Source of the DNA: a virus
Lineage: Duplodnaviria; Caudoviricetes
IMG/VR virus record: IMGVR_UViG_3300012988_000019
Span: 1 to 54,102 of that record
DNA length: 54,102 bases
Direction: 5' to 3' (one strand)
Under the pieces are notes generated by a model. It was given only the letters and a program-made list of their open reading frames with translations, was not told where the DNA came from and searched no databases. This document shows positions 5,722-9,689 of the stretch, piece after piece. The stretch's first letter is position 1. Each line of letters begins with the position of its first letter. A program made the translations under genes and the position numbers.

Positions 5722-6075
5722 TCAGTACCAGGTTGGGGTCAGCTCGCCATCGGTGACTGCGATGACGAGGTGACTGAGTGGTTCGACCCTCTGGGCGAGG
5801 TCGACCCGAGATGGACCGACCCCGCCGCCGGGGTGAGAATGCCAGAGGGTGAGCTTCTCGAGTGTCGCCAAGGAAAGAGGCAGGTGGTTGGAGAGAAGTA
5901 CCTTCTGGATCTCAAGCCTGCTGACTGTGAACCTGTTGGTCGGGTTCTCAGCCTCGTTGGGGAGCTGAACCACCGTGCCGTCCGGTAGGATCAGCCCAGC
6001 GGCCTCGTTCGGCATCTCGGGCAGGATGATCTGCTCGAGCTGCCTCATCAGCCGGGGCGTCAGGACGTGCAGCAC
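5722..6075 (-). CDS. JAB/MPN (JAMM) metalloprotease
   Basis: EAAGLI...WHSHPGGGVGPSRVD matches E...HxH-x7-S-x2-D. Confidence 0.85.
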   Translation of the reverse strand: MLHVLTPRLMRQLEQIILPEMPNEAAGLILPDGTVVQLPNEAENPTNRFTVSRLEIQKVLLSNHLPLSLATLEKLTLWHSHPGGGVGPSRVDLAQRVEPLSHLVIAVTDGELTPTWY

Positions 6076-6346
6076 TGGTACCTCCGAAGATGGCCATCAG
6101 ATCACCCTCGTCGAGGATGCCCTTCTGAGCCAGTCGTTCGATCATGCGGAGCGTGAGCCCCGCGGTCTGGGCCTCGATAGCCCCCGGCACTCGCTCCCGG
6201 GGTGCCTGGCGTCGAGGTGTGGGGCCGGGCTGCAGCGGGATCAGCTCGTCAGTAAGAGTGAACCGATGGTACTTGTCACCGTGCAGCTCGCGGATGGTGC
6301 TGCAGACCCCGCAGACATCGTCAGGGCCATTCTGGATGTCAGCCAT
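5948..6346 (-). CDS. Hypothetical protein (CxxC/His N-terminus)
   Basis: Coupled to the upstream gene; C-terminus overlaps the JAB gene. Confidence 0.6.
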   Translation of the reverse strand: MADIQNGPDDVCGVCSTIRELHGDKYHRFTLTDELIPLQPGPTPRRQAPRERVPGAIEAQTAGLTLRMIERLAQKGILDEGDLMAIFGGTSAARPDAPADEAARADHPARDAERGRWADPTGRHGGSAPQRG

Positions 6347-7040
6347 CGCCGAGCTCCGATTCGTCGAAGTCCTCGGAAACCTGAGCAGCCATCTCCATGG
6401 TGATGCCCGGGTAGTGAGCCACCGAGTAACCCTGGCCCGTGTCGGGGTTCATCGCCGCCTGGGAGGGGTTCACCATCACCTGGCCGAGGATGCCCTGCAG
6501 CTTGACCGAGACATCGGCCTCGAGTCGCTGCTTGGGCTTGCCAACCACGTGCTCGATCAGGAACTTGGCCGCCTCGAGCTTCGTACCTGCCGGTACGATC
6601 GGCTTGCCCTTGTCGTCGTAGTCCTCGTTCTCGAGGATGTTCTTGATCGCCTGGACCGCGTCAACGGTCGTGGCGTTCATCTCCGACTTGATCGCGGCAG
6701 TGTACCGCTCCATGGCCTGTTCGTGAACAGCCGCGGTGATCCACTTCGGCGCTCGACCTCGGAAGGTCCCATCGGCAGAGCGAGGGCGGCCGTGAGCCAG
6801 CTCTTCCAGGTCCCACTCGTCGAGCGGCTTCTGGAAGAGGTAGTCAGCCTCCTGCTCAGTCATTCGTTCCGAGCGAGCCATCTTGCGTCGGGCTCGAGCT
6901 CGGATCTGCTTGGGCGTCAGGAGCTTGCCTTCCGCGGTGCGGGGCGGCTCTCGACGAGCCAGCTGGTCCTGGATGACCCCGGACTTGTGCTGACGATGGT
7001 CAGGGCTGTTCCTGAAGTCCACTGTCATCACGGATGCCAT
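6339..7040 (-). CDS. Putative terminase small subunit
   Basis: ATG 7040 with GAGGAGG RBS; helical 233 aa protein upstream of terminase (KLEAAKFLIEHVVGKPKQ). Confidence 0.6.
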   Translation of the reverse strand: MASVMTVDFRNSPDHRQHKSGVIQDQLARREPPRTAEGKLLTPKQIRARARRKMARSERMTEQEADYLFQKPLDEWDLEELAHGRPRSADGTFRGRAPKWITAAVHEQAMERYTAAIKSEMNATTVDAVQAIKNILENEDYDDKGKPIVPAGTKLEAAKFLIEHVVGKPKQRLEADVSVKLQGILGQVMVNPSQAAMNPDTGQGYSVAHYPGITMEMAAQVSEDFDESELGDG

Positions 7041-7305
7041 CGTCAACACCTCCTCGGCGCGGCTGAAGCTTGCCCAGTCGACCGGTCCTGGGCAGATCGT
7101 CCGTATCGCGCTTGGTGGTGCGCGCTCGAGCATCGATGTGAGGCGATGCGTGCGAGGCGATCTGGATGCCTCTGACGCCGCCCTGTCGAGCGGTCGAGCG
7201 CTGCAGCAGCATGCGATTACGGCGGTCGAGCTCCTTCAGCTGGCGGTAGATGCGGACCTGGTACGCGAGAATCGCCAGCCCGAGAGCAAGGAGCAGGAAG
7301 TCCAT
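7000..7305 (-). CDS. Small membrane-anchored protein
   Basis: AAGGAGG RBS; N-terminal hydrophobic helix MDFLLLALGLAILAY. Confidence 0.65.
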   Translation of the reverse strand: MDFLLLALGLAILAYQVRIYRQLKELDRRNRMLLQRSTARQGGVRGIQIASHASPHIDARARTTKRDTDDLPRTGRLGKLQPRRGGVDDGIRDDSGLQEQP

Positions 7306-7506
7306 GGCTTTCCTCCTTGAGCTTGCCTCTATGAGGCAACGAGTCTGGATTGTGTGCACTCTATCAAGGCATCTGTTCATCGCGCAAGGGGACGCATCGG
7401 ACACCGTTCCCCAGCGGGCCCGAAGTTCATTCCTGTCAGCGAGTCATCCCACACCAATCGAGGCCGATCTCCGAAGAGACCGACCCCGAGAGGTAGTGCG
7501 TGATCG

Positions 7507-8646
7507 TCAGATCGTGTGGCGGCGGCGGTAGGCGACCGCCCCGACCGTGCCGGCACCGGCGGCGAGCAGCGCACCGGCGGTCCCGAGGGCGCCGAGGTCG
7601 GACCCGGTGTGGGCGAGCTCGGTGTCGTCGTTGGCCGGCGCGGCGACCTTGGCCGGGGTGACCGGCGCGGTGACCGTGACCGGGGCGGTGACGGAGATCG
7701 GCGTCGTGATCACCGGGTTGTCGACCGGCGTCGTCGGCTCCTCGACCGGGGTCTCGGGGTCGGTCGGGTCCTCGGGGTCGACGGGCGTCTCACCCGGCTC
7801 CTCCTCGCAGACCGTCGGGGCGATGTACTCCTGTCCGGGGTCGATCATCTCCGTGATGCCCTCGCCGGACCGCTCGTTCCCCGTCGGCTCGTAGCTGGCG
7901 TCGGGGGCCTTCCAGCCGGCGTCGCGCCAGACCAGCTCGGTCGAGTCCTCGGTGCCCGGGATGTAGTCCGGGTTCGGGATGGTCGGACCGGTGTAGTCCG
8001 GGTTGGGGATCGTCTCGTCGCCCTCGGCGTCGTGGTTGACGGTCTCGGTCCAGGCCTCGCGGATGGTGACCGTCTCGTCCCAGGCCTCCTTGATCAGGGC
8101 ACCCGGGCGGGTCTGGCCGGTCTGGGTGTAGCGGTACTCCGTGGAGACCTTGCGCTTCTTGCCGTCGGTCGACTGCACCGCCGAGTGCGGGCCGGCCTCG
8201 GTGAAGTTGGCGTCGGCCCACTTGGTCGAGTTGCCCGACCAGTTCTCCCAGCCGAAGGTCTCGCCGGTGTTGACCCAGCCCAGCCACCCGGTCTGCTGCT
8301 GGATGATGCCGCGGACCTGCTTGATGTACAGGTACTCGGTGGCGTACTCGGCGTCGTGGTGGATGACCGTGGTCTCCGCCGGGTGGTTGATCGTCTCGGT
8401 CCAGGCCGGCTTGTAGTCGGGGTTCGGGATCGTCGGCGAGACCGGGTTCGGCAGCGTCTCCTCGCCCTGGGCGGGGGTGCCGGCGATGGTGTGGAGGTAC
8501 TCGTACTGCACCGCGTAGGTCGGCGCGATGTACTCCTGGCCCGGGTCGGGCACGCACTCGGTGGCCGAGGCGATGGGGGCGAAGATCAGGCCGAGGGCGA
8601 TGGCGCCCGGGGCGGCGAGGGTGTAGAGGAAGCGCGACTTGCGCAT
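7507..8646 (-). CDS. Secreted sortase-anchored (LAxTG) cell-wall protein
   Basis: Signal peptide (ASA/TE), Pro/Thr-rich linker, LAHTG, hydrophobic helix, RRRH tail. Confidence 0.85.
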   Translation of the reverse strand: MRKSRFLYTLAAPGAIALGLIFAPIASATECVPDPGQEYIAPTYAVQYEYLHTIAGTPAQGEETLPNPVSPTIPNPDYKPAWTETINHPAETTVIHHDAEYATEYLYIKQVRGIIQQQTGWLGWVNTGETFGWENWSGNSTKWADANFTEAGPHSAVQSTDGKKRKVSTEYRYTQTGQTRPGALIKEAWDETVTIREAWTETVNHDAEGDETIPNPDYTGPTIPNPDYIPGTEDSTELVWRDAGWKAPDASYEPTGNERSGEGITEMIDPGQEYIAPTVCEEEPGETPVDPEDPTDPETPVEEPTTPVDNPVITTPISVTAPVTVTAPVTPAKVAAPANDDTELAHTGSDLGALGTAGALLAAGAGTVGAVAYRRRHTI

Positions 8647-8658
8647 GAGAGGCTCCTG

Positions 8659-8901
8659 TCAGGCCCGCTGAAGCGAGGCCGTACGGCTGATGTAGATCGG
8701 GAAGTCGTACTCCTCGACTCGAACCTCGATGGACTGTCGAGAGTTCGTGGGGGTCGCGGAGATCAGTGTCAGGGGCTCAGGCTCACCCTTGACGTTGTGG
8801 AGGAAGCGCGTCCCCTGCGCTCCGACCAGGTTAGTTGCCGGGAAGAACTTCTCCTTAGACCAGTCATTGGTCCCCGGCAGCTCGAATCGTCGTGCGGTCA
8901 T
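8659..8901 (-). CDS. Hypothetical protein (leaderless)
   Basis: 80 aa; promoter -10 ends 7 nt upstream of the ATG. Confidence 0.65.
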   Translation of the reverse strand: MTARRFELPGTNDWSKEKFFPATNLVGAQGTRFLHNVKGEPEPLTLISATPTNSRQSIEVRVEEYDFPIYISRTASLQRA

Positions 8902-8908
8902 AGCAGTA

Positions 8909-8937
8909 ATACTAGGCTACTGCGTACCGGATGTCAA
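8909..8937 (-). promoter_or_regulatory. SigA-type promoter TTGACA-17-TAGTAT
   Basis: Consensus boxes with 17 bp spacer. Confidence 0.8.
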
Positions 8938-9432
8938 CGACGAATCGAGTGCCGGAGCGGGAACTTCATCCGGTTCCACACCCGGTTGGTGAGCCGCATC
9001 GCGACCCAGAGCGGAACCACCTTCTTCACCCACTTCCTCTCCTCGCTGAGGAGGTAGTAGGTCTTGCCGGCGTCGTTCGAACGCCTCGCCGCGGCGGCGG
9101 TTCTGCCAGATCATGTCGCCGACCCCGATCCAGTCCGCCGGGTCGGTCGTCAGCGGGTTGAGGTTCTCGAAGTTCAGCAGCCGCTGCAGGGTCTGCAGGC
9201 TGTACGAGGCCGACATGCCCGAGTGCCCCTGCTGGCTGAAGCGGATCACCAGGTCCATGATGTCGTACGCCATCTGGCGGTTCATCTTGTCCGAGCCGGG
9301 GTAGCCCATGCCGCTCAGCTCACGCATGGCGTGCAGCACGAGGTTGCTCTCGAAGCTGGCGTCGTAGTCGGAGTCCCGCCACTGCGGGAACTCAGCGCGG
9401 CGATCACGCAGGGGCTTGTCGCTGGTGATCAT
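8934..9432 (-). pseudogene. Phage protein (FSQQGHSGMSA motif) with apparent frameshift near 9078
   Basis: After ...WQNRRRGEAF the adjacent frame reads NDAGKTYYLL... to TGA at 8934. Confidence 0.6.
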
Positions 9433-9689
9433 CAGTCCTCCAGGTTGGCGCAGTGCTCGTCCCACTCGGGAACGCGCATCACGGCGTTGTAGTCACGGGT
9501 GGTGGTCGCGAAGGCGATGTCGTCGATGCACACCCGGGTGATGTTCGGGTGCTGGTCGACGTTGCCGTAGATCGTGATCTCGTCCGGCTCCTCGAACGGG
9601 ACGTTCTCGACGTCGTACTGCTGCGCGCAGCCCGCGGTCAGGGTGACCAGAGCCGCTGCTGCCAGCACGGCAGCGAGCCTCTTCTTCAT
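9432..9689 (-). CDS. Lipoprotein
   Basis: MKKR, hydrophobic stretch, lipobox LTAG-C. Confidence 0.75.
   Translation of the reverse strand: MKKRLAAVLAAAALVTLTAGCAQQYDVENVPFEEPDEITIYGNVDQHPNITRVCIDDIAFATTTRDYNAVMRVPEWDEHCANLED

Follow-up and report, generated by a model that had tools for sequence, protein, structure and literature searches.

Sortase-anchored proteins are normally viewed as a bacterium's own adhesins and pili. Why, then, would a phage that is probably lytic carry a gene whose product bears signals for export and wall attachment, and what form would such a protein take on the surface of an infected cell? The question is posed by a gene at positions 7507 to 8646 (minus strand) of the window, by which we mean the whole stretch of DNA analyzed here, all 54,102 bases of the IMG/VR record IMGVR_UViG_3300012988_000019 (Caudoviricetes), which is linear and 91% complete by CheckV. 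We find that the 379-amino-acid (aa) product is probably a sortase-signal-bearing, phage-borne surface protein with an undescribed hairpin-rod ectodomain. The original prediction, made from the sequence alone, had treated the protein as a one-off, but it belongs to a Microbacterium phage family that is sizeable and has gone unannotated.

The target open reading frame (ORF) has an ATG start and a TGA stop, a GC content at third codon positions (GC3) of 0.98, and an AGGAG sequence 7 nucleotides (nt) 5' of the ATG. The gene and its parts, in order from the N terminus, are as follows.

7507..8646 (stop included), minus strand: whole gene for the predicted 379-aa secreted hairpin-rod protein with a sorting signal (ORF and translation).
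8563..8646, minus strand: signal peptide, residues 1-28 (hydropathy; helix 12-20 in the AlphaFold model).
8350..8556, minus strand: N arm, residues 31-99, with Cys31, DPGQEYIAPT (34-43), IPNPDY (73-78), AWTETIN (81-87), and HHDAE.
8104..8349, minus strand: Trp-rich core, or tip, residues 100-181, reading TEYLY...GWLGWV...FGWENWSG...KW...GPH...TEYRY.
7807..8103, minus strand: C arm, residues 182-280, with AWDETV, AWTETVN, HDAE, IPNPDY twice, DPGQEYIAPT (269-278), and Cys280.
7861-7941, minus strand: extra W..GW module inside the C arm, residues 236-262.
7618..7806, minus strand: Pro/Thr/Glu/Val-rich linker, residues 281-343, a presumed wall-spanning spacer (composition; low predicted local distance difference test [pLDDT] values).
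7510..7617, minus strand: cell wall sorting signal, with LAHTG (344-348), a hydrophobic stretch (349-373), and an RRRHTI tail.

The mature region had been described as a nested order of motifs, A-B-C-D-core-D'-C'-B'-A', with the protein's only two cysteines flanking it, and this description is borne out by the sequence. Every listed motif stands in its place: DPGQEYIAPT begins at residues 34 and 269, IPNPDY at 73, 213, and 223, AW.ET at 81, 188, and 198, HDAE at 97 and 205, and TEY.Y at 103 and 169, while cysteines occur at 31 and 280 only. Five Trp residues lie within residues 121 to 143, and the 63-residue linker is dominated by Pro (14), Thr (12), Glu (9), and Val (9). The two 10-residue copies of DPGQEYIAPT show four synonymous and no nonsynonymous base differences, so that what is kept identical is the protein sequence. 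Across three full-length homologues, neither of the cysteines nor the DPGQ..I.P motif varies, and invariant residues of the core include W124, W133, W136, W143, H154, F131, Y107, and Y173. Given the synonymous-only repeats, the invariant motifs, and the recurrence of the same order and Cys bracket across the family, the mirror layout is beyond chance.

The relatives allow the proposed pairing of the arms to be examined quantitatively. A hidden Markov model (HMM) of the core was built and used to place the core in each collected protein; 33 proteins had the full core, with the 379-aa protein scoring 93 (E = 4e-29). All 33 have a Cys on either side of the core, and the number of cysteines is even in 32 of them and exactly two in 17. 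The C arm exceeded the N arm by 1 to 7 residues in 21/33 proteins (mean 4.1, standard deviation 1.4), with N arms that span 2 to 148 residues, whereas shuffled arm pairings gave a mean of 2.5 matches and a maximum of 11 in 10,000 trials. The count becomes 22/33 if the outer cysteines of relative P0022 are used. The longer C arm in the remaining 11 proteins carries a W..W..R module, present in the C arm only, in nine cases. Kinship among the 33 proteins inflates both these arm-length statistics and the register statistics below; even so, arm lengths vary widely among proteins sharing <50% identity.

Registers were compared position by position by summing outer-to-inner NPDY positions. StrawberryJamm gp75 gave five sums of 519, and Hendrix gp122 gave seven of 637 and one of 639; the sum was 452 to 454 in P0036, 366 to 368 in P0008, and 327 to 329 in P0033. 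The sums were thus constant (range 0 to 2) in five of the six relatives tested, each within 6 to 8 of the corresponding Cys sum, and random NPDY placements did equally well in 0 to 24 of 10,000 cases. For OneinaGillian gp75, the sums were 561 to 565 (range 4) compared with a Cys sum of 557; its random-placement control used the wrong Cys pair and was disregarded.

Structure prediction points the same way. AlphaFold2 was run on two constructs, the whole protein and its mature part, with 31 to 33 homologues as input. Both models are all-beta except for the signal and anchor helices, and both place the core (residues 100 to 181) at a pLDDT of 95 to 99. In model 1, residues ~72 to 214 are all-beta at a pLDDT of >90 (mostly 92 to 99). 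Long strands were modeled at 100-118, 124-135, 151-161, and 164-186, and arm strands in model 1 at 72-74, 82-88, and 91-97 in the N arm and at 189-196, 199-205, and 212-214 in the C arm. Toward the base, the whole-protein model has isolated bridges, as assigned by DSSP, at residues 34 and 278 and also at 79 and 208. In the mature-part model, bridges or strands at 34, 37, 40, and 43-47 are mirrored by 264-269, 272, 275, and 278, with a register of i+j = 312 compared with Cys31+Cys280 = 311 and a pLDDT of 69 to 83, the adjoining stretches being below 50. The mirrored bridges, the register, and the locally raised pLDDT indicate that, in the model, the DPGQEYIAPT copies are paired antiparallel with the cysteines together. 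In the vicinity of the core, i+j is instead ~284 to 287, against 312 at the base, so ~27 residues of the C arm are unpaired; they coincide with the W..GW module (236 to 262), which is missing from the symmetric relatives.

An AlphaFold model had been named as a check on the proposed long two-stranded beta-hairpin, disulfide locked at its base and displaying a Trp-rich head, and the two models give a confident all-beta center along with the antiparallel DPGQEYIAPT pairing. The N/C pairing, the Cys base, and the Trp-rich tip are supported by both the models and the comparison, while "two-stranded" is less certain, the ~27 surplus C-arm residues being a misfit with a simple ribbon. Several further observations sit uneasily with a fully paired rod. 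The 379-aa protein is itself one of the 11/33 with unequal arms (69 versus 99 residues), its pLDDT falls below 50 at residues 43 to 68 and about 218 to 263, and arm pairing was deduced from DSSP bridge patterns and pLDDT rather than from model coordinates. A crude test of order based on mean motif distances scored only one of five proteins as mirror images; this test failed because AW.E units sit both beside the core and beside the cysteines, and it was superseded by the position-by-position sums.

How much of this could an ordinary globular beta domain explain, one in which the mirror order of the motifs is structurally meaningless? The two-residue breaks between strands 82-88, 91-97, and 100-118 could be the tight turns of a compact meander. 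Such a domain would not, however, account for arm lengths that covary from 2 to 148 residues or for mirror-image motif positions extending over up to 250 residues per arm, and Foldseek superpositions of the model onto compact domains gave root mean square deviations of 30 to 45 Å, as expected because the model is very elongated. We therefore regard a globular domain as very improbable. A paired-arm, Cys-clasped rod is well supported for the family, and a rod of this kind with one looped-out insertion is supported for the 379-aa protein.

Searches by fold and family returned little that resembles this rod. Foldseek against the PDB gave 0 matches at an E value of ≤0.001 for either model, and a wide VIA-align search of the PDB gave best Z scores of 3.9 and 3.5, to long beta-hairpins of ribosomal-protein, secretin, and DysF structures, none convincing. 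No solved structure represents the hairpin-rod design in these PDB fold searches. A BFVD search gave weak matches only, Cressida gp81 among them, and an ESM Atlas search with the core gave scores of ≤0.81 and no named cluster. Pfam had no family at an E value of ≤1 for the 379-aa protein, and Pfam, NCBIfam, and PHROGs had nothing for it or its relatives besides anchor models (PHROGs, 0/8 relatives).

Export and anchoring are read from the two ends of the chain, where all elements of the originally predicted signal peptide and LAHTG-hydrophobic-RRR anchor are present in the sequence. The N terminus consists of MRKSR, a hydrophobic core, and ASA ahead of the predicted cut, with a hydropathy of 1.6 to 1.9 over residues 6 to 30; the call is a reading of sequence and hydropathy rather than the output of a dedicated predictor, and the cleavage site after ASA28 is placed by the -3/-1 rule. 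At the C terminus, LAHTG (344 to 348), 25 mostly small or hydrophobic residues, and RRRHTI form a complete tripartite layout, with a helix modeled by AlphaFold over the hydrophobic stretch (351 to 377). This is the sole LAHTG-type sorting signal among the window ORFs. It has Ala instead of Pro at the second motif position, as in class E substrates, and its reading as the class E sortase motif of actinobacteria agrees with the available portion of PMC5148588, in which LAXTG is the signal of class E sortases in soil Actinobacteria. No sortase gene is encoded in the window, so a host enzyme would be required for anchoring; in the order to which Cellulosimicrobium belongs, 95 of 101 sampled genomes had sortase-domain genes, counted regardless of class.

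The curated anchor models are less accommodating than the motif itself. NF058582 matched the anchor below threshold (15.8 bits versus a cutoff of 27; E = 0.011), and neither TIGR01167 nor PF00746 matched the 379-aa protein, all of which counts against a sortase-processed anchor. These results leave room for a protein that is exported but not processed by sortase and stays in the membrane as a type I protein, with the C-terminal helix holding it there. In its favor, the anchor region falls below every curated sorting-signal cutoff, an L[PAS]x[TSA]G motif is absent from 11/33 core-bearing relatives, and relatives in phages are annotated "membrane protein." Even so, LAHTG, the hydrophobic stretch, and RRR stand in order at the extreme C terminus as a full tripartite signal, the motif is present in 22/33 relatives (18 as LAxTG), and among the relatives scanned, TIGR01167 scored above its cutoff in 4/17 and PF00746 matched at an E value of ≤0.01 in 3/31. 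We judge simple membrane retention to be quite unlikely, and we consider it likely that the 379-aa protein has the architecture and the wall anchoring proposed here.

Other C termini occur in the wider collection. Some family members (at loci L013 and L015, from Nocardioides and an uncultured actinobacterium, and proteins P0015 and P0065) end in (I/V)DAGL, a hydrophobic stretch, and a basic tail rather than LAxTG, and in L015 a sortase-domain gene (G005:C2:147551-147958) lies immediately downstream of the family member; such ends may represent a distinct sorting motif served by its own sortase. Four relatives (P0012, P0027, P0030, and P0043) end in ...EGM with no trailing hydrophobic stretch, and four others (P0004, P0011, P0014, and P0045) have ...(S/T)FTG as their exact end with no hydrophobic stretch beyond it. 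The recurrence of both endings suggests either a further type of C-terminal signal or a problem of read-through or gene calling.

Who else carries such a protein? An exhaustive HMMER search recovered 62 representatives at an E value of ≤0.001 among 1.84 billion proteins, and a word-indexed search recovered nine homologues; all 10 clusters looked up (10/10) were unnamed singletons. Megablast and tblastn (1e-3) searches of the target against phages gave no match, and a relaxed tblastn search with the mature part reached 75 phage records, 74 of them of Microbacterium phages. Homologues of one such protein, StrawberryJamm gp75, occur in 136 phage records, every one a Microbacterium phage. StrawberryJamm gp75 follows the plan of the target, with five PNPDY units per arm and a LAQTG anchor, and is annotated "membrane protein"; family members in phages carry merely that label or "hypothetical protein." The window protein matches its Microbacterium phage relatives with a BLASTP E value of 3e-11 and ~27% identity, and an hhalign comparison of the window (type 1) and StrawberryJamm-like (type 2) profiles gave a probability of 99.9% (E = 1.6e-34). 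The window protein is a subtype, type 1, with an enlarged 82-residue tip that contains five Trp.

The phages of the family span at least six genera (Squashvirus, Gillianvirus, Quhwahvirus, Krampusvirus, Mementomorivirus, and Rogerhendrixvirus). The family gene has replication, early, or regulatory genes rather than structural ones as its neighbors in five phage genera, and in those Microbacterium phages it is flanked by gaps of 38 to 180 bases. Microbacterium phages are presumably mostly obligately lytic (PMC7302621, in the part available), and that part of the paper mentions neither sortase nor LPXTG. Outside phages, homologues in Cellulomonas, Cellulosimicrobium, and Nocardioides keep the Cys-bracketed plan with LATTG, LAATG, or LPATG anchors, and their chromosomal surroundings are syntenic between Cellulomonas and Cellulosimicrobium. 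An exact pattern coding for AWTETIEHPA was present in nine species genomes. Pattern-based locus searches with the window-type alignment in viral, genome, and metagenome contigs found none, nor did a P0025-based locus search in viral contigs; a degenerate core DNA pattern gave six matches in metagenomes, all chance, and no longer, fused core forms were found, which is weak evidence.

Homologs with variable cores had been proposed as a line of inquiry, and the search found relatives with similar arms and different tips. The PNPDY arms of OneinaGillian gp75 and StrawberryJamm gp75 are similar (45% identity overall), whereas the tip is of type 2 in StrawberryJamm gp75 and of the small Hendrix type in OneinaGillian gp75, which also has an additional Cys-paired domain beyond the clasp. 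By sequence, this pair looks like a case of tip swapping. P0025 shares the signal peptide of the target (69% identity over 36 residues) and has the same anchor, but its arms are twice as long. The differing tips and the arm length of P0025 indicate that tip and arms behave as exchangeable modules. In addition, arm repeats of the AWTETIEHPAE type flank small CxxC...CxxC units in lipoproteins or anchored proteins of Bacillota, in Lachnospiraceae, Mediterraneibacter, and Clostridium metagenome-assembled genomes (loci L009, L010, L012, and L014; P0007, P0010, and P0054 to P0063), and the repeat arm may serve Gram-positive bacteria generally as a module that presents various tips.

The phage itself is probably lytic. 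The window ORFs include those for a terminase, portal, scaffold, DNA polymerase, primase/helicase, tail proteins, and an amidase endolysin, and the earlier remark that no lysogeny genes are visible holds: no integrase was found among the 36 larger ORFs by PHROGs or among 20 by Pfam in this 91% complete record. Its nearest relatives among isolated phages are Curtobacterium phage Shrew and the Microbacterium phages Triscuit and Huwbert, with 64 to 71% identity in DNA polymerase and 52 to 56% in portal. This kinship makes the host probably a member of the Microbacteriaceae, and since the genomes of these three phages are ~68 kb, the window is a large fragment. None of the three has a homologue of the target. 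Shrew gp28 (L003:10423-11268) is unrelated and yet has a signal peptide, two cysteines, a Pro/Thr/Ser linker, LAYTG, a hydrophobic stretch, and RRRK, and Triscuit gp17 (L002:6303-6596) is a 97-aa protein with four cysteines, LATTG, a hydrophobic stretch, and RRAR. Both are annotated "hypothetical protein," and their ends indicate that wall-sorting signals recur on different proteins in this phage group.

In the mechanism that we propose, the gene product would be an accessory, nonvirion protein synthesized in the infected cell, exported by the Sec route through its classical signal peptide, and cleaved after ASA28. The mature chain would fold back on itself so that the N arm (31 to 99) lies antiparallel to the C arm (182 to 280) along its length, with the conserved 82-residue Trp-rich beta unit (100 to 181) as the distal tip, a Cys31-Cys280 disulfide closing the base of the rod, and the ~27 surplus residues of the W..GW module looping out of the C arm. 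The 63-residue Pro/Thr/Glu linker would span the wall, and a host sortase would join Thr347 to peptidoglycan, leaving the rod on the surface of the infected cell. An extended chain covers ~3.3 Å per residue; as an upper bound from this value, the N arm, with its 69 residues, would be at most about 20 nm long, and the arms of Hendrix gp122 (225 to 290 residues) could, again as an upper bound, span several times 20 nm. Rods of this kind would alter the surface of the cell and make it a poor target for adsorption by further phages, with the swappable tip as the element of specificity, and the benefit would be superinfection exclusion or progeny kept from adhering to infected cells and to wall debris. 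A virion or tail-fiber role is rejected in view of the signal peptide and sorting signal and of the location outside the structural genes.

Of the functions considered, we tentatively favor surface remodeling that lowers the adsorption of further phages, a role that is possible rather than established; it is favored because the genes are kept by lytic phages, their neighbors are nonstructural, tip and length vary, and the protein would stand at the surface, the site at which an arriving phage has to operate. Two observations pull the other way. The nearest isolated phages, as said, have no homologue, and the Cellulomonas, Cellulosimicrobium, and Nocardioides homologues lie in ordinary, nonprophage chromosomal surroundings, and the fold therefore has some cellular role, possibly unrelated to phages.

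That cellular presence also bears on whether the rod, with the same architecture and anchoring, could instead be an adhesin or aggregation factor whose aromatic tip binds a glycan, a wall polymer, or a cell. Clumping of infected cells, or their attachment to surfaces, would follow, with progeny set free beside new hosts. Sugar-binding faces are often aromatic rich, and the tip is rich in invariant aromatics (W124, W133, W136, W143, F131, Y107, and Y173), although these may merely form the hydrophobic core of a small beta unit. Homologues are chromosomal in free-living actinobacteria, and the nearest analogue in design, antigen I/II, is an adhesin (PMC3178794, in the part available). On the other hand, no similarity to carbohydrate-binding or adhesin families was seen (0 Pfam matches; best PDB Z scores of 3.9 and 3.5), and the gain for an obligately lytic phage is less direct. 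We find an adhesin rather doubtful.

The gene could also be a recently captured host surface-protein gene, a passenger with no phage-specific role. The evidence involves the following neighboring features.

8909..8937, minus strand: promoter-like site TTGACA-17-TAGTAT, a consensus match only, whose end lies 7 nt short of the 80-aa ORF's ATG.
8659..8901, minus strand: 80-aa ORF directly upstream of the target (GC3 of 0.78), with its stop 12 nt before the target ATG.
7458..7489, minus strand: 14-bp stem with a UUCG loop, 18 nt past the target stop (-29.8 kcal/mol for 46 nt).

A scan for promoters found one site compared with 0.2 expected in shuffled sequences, and a leaderless start of the 80-aa ORF is possible. 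The hairpin has no U tract and was not called by a terminator scan; it is a possible terminator. The GC content over the target gene is 0.67 to 0.75, compared with 0.60 to 0.65 in the flanks. The promoter-like site, hairpin, and raised GC content may hint at a self-contained transcription unit inserted among the phage genes, a phage moron, but each of these features is weak. Such a unit, possibly with its own promoter-like site and terminal hairpin in a GC-rich stretch, would suit a passenger, as would the lack of homologues in the nearest isolated phages alongside the existence of cellular ones. Yet a Pro/Ala/Gly-rich composition alone lifts GC content, and five other window ORFs also have a GC3 of ≥0.96. 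Moreover, of 401 genomes sampled from the order of Cellulosimicrobium, just 2 matched the type-1 profile, both weakly, and no likely donor was seen; the family is kept in the 136 phage records across genera, and the repeats differ synonymously only. A passenger is thus unlikely.

As a whole, a wall-anchored hairpin rod with an adsorption-blocking role is the best explanation that we can offer, one in which our confidence falls somewhat short of even. More speculatively, lytic Microbacteriaceae phages may plant a covalently wall-linked coat of rods by means of the host's housekeeping sortase, a coat that excludes rivals or saves progeny. With such a coat, and just as speculatively, the matched arm repeats might set the length of the rod and the small aromatic tip might serve as a swappable specificity module.

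The closest counterparts are the Microbacterium phage proteins StrawberryJamm gp75, Hendrix gp122, OneinaGillian gp75, Cressida gp81, Phrancesco gp81, and PhunaPhoke gp58, which share the plan of signal peptide, Cys, repeat arm, small aromatic core, mirrored arm, and Cys, followed by a Pro/Glu linker, a sorting motif (LAQTG or LAETG in these proteins), a hydrophobic stretch, and a basic tail. In contrast to them, the arms of the window protein add DPGQEYIAPT and AWTET units to PNPDY, and its C arm is ~27 residues longer. Full-text searches, which did not extend to the supplements of the huge-phage preprint cited below, found no description of the family or of its link to sortase.

The antigen I/II adhesins of streptococci (SspB, SpaP, and AspA) are also wall-anchored surface proteins with N- and C-terminal repeat regions forming a head-bearing stalk; according to the available text of PMC3178794, these regions associate into a stalk that projects the head from the anchor point. 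Their stalk pairs an alpha-helix with a polyproline helix, whereas the arms of the window protein are beta-rich and Pro-rich. They have no disulfide clasp, have large unrelated heads and C-domains, and are encoded by chromosomal rather than phage genes. Antigen I/II adhesins are marked by an Ala-rich helical A region, a Pro-rich P region, a V head, and C-terminal Antigen_C/AgI_II_C2 domains; no antigen I/II domain of Pfam matched the window protein, which is not a member of that family. The class E LAxTG substrates, such as Streptomyces chaplins (NF058582, NF041527, and NF041528), share the actinobacterial signal with Ala in second position but have an unrelated ectodomain, and the anchor models match only the last ~35 to 80 residues, mostly below the cutoff. 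A chaplin-like amyloid is rejected, no similarity having been found.

Phage-borne sortase substrates have so far been a matter of temperate elements or of huge phages with their own sortase. SasX is a prophage-borne, LPXTG-bearing, sortase-anchored protein of a temperate element that acts in colonization. T5 Llp and TP-J34 Ltp are phage lipoproteins on the cell surface that block later infection and are lipid anchored as opposed to bearing a wall-sorting signal; like SasX, they are functional analogues only. Gut huge phages carry modules of sortase B (SrtB) and substrate for which display on the infected cell has been proposed, as far as the accessible part of the preprint goes (bioRxiv 10.64898/2026.10.24.761521). 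In that part, the substrates, like the window protein, are encoded by the phage and carry both a signal peptide and a tripartite signal for wall sorting, while the modules include their own SrtB, a PXTG motif, SHIRT or FctA domains, and Bacillota hosts. The window, in contrast, is 54 kb (with ~68-kb relatives) and has no sortase, and its protein has LAHTG, no Pfam domains, and an inferred actinobacterial host.

An ordinary-sized, probably lytic actinophage thus carries a substrate alone and would depend on the host enzyme. Were the rods to control adsorption, they would amount to a new kind of device for phage-phage competition or against readsorption in Gram-positive hosts. The coat, if real, would be a Gram-positive, peptidoglycan-anchored counterpart of exclusion of the T5 Llp type and would represent a previously unrecognized fold principle for bacterial surface rods. 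Matched arms and exact mirror registers point to a simple, tunable construction of surface rods, from which work on protein design and on surface display could benefit. The present analysis contributes the type-1 variant, statistics on arm length and register, and the members in chromosomes. As the plan recurs in 136 isolated Microbacterium phages kept in teaching and research collections, the idea is readily testable.

Several neighbors of the gene deserve mention. The 80-aa ORF directly upstream had no PHROG or Pfam match and no tblastn match in phages. Two genes upstream, a 182-aa ORF (8917-9465, minus strand) matched PF25185 (Tad3, a type I Thoeris inhibitor) over residues 40 to 131 (E = 2.5e-28) and has tblastn relatives in 33 phage records, 23 of them from Arthrobacter phages; judged by this similarity, it is a candidate antidefense gene near the surface-protein gene. 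An 85-aa ORF (9432-9689, minus strand) starts MKKRLAAVLAAAALVTLTAGC, which resembles a lipoprotein signal, although the lipobox is imperfect; this ORF has no family match and may encode a second phage-encoded envelope protein near the target. Directly downstream of the hairpin, at 7000-7304 (minus strand), a strong AAGGAGG precedes the ATG of an ORF that opens MDFLLLALGLAILAYQV and encodes a predicted small membrane protein with a single pass; the annotated start of a 264-aa ORF (6339-7133) falls within the overlap between the two. Between the target region and the terminase, a 117-aa ORF (5722-6075, minus strand) matched Prok-JAB (PF14464; E = 7.4e-09) and, weakly, minor-tail PHROGs.

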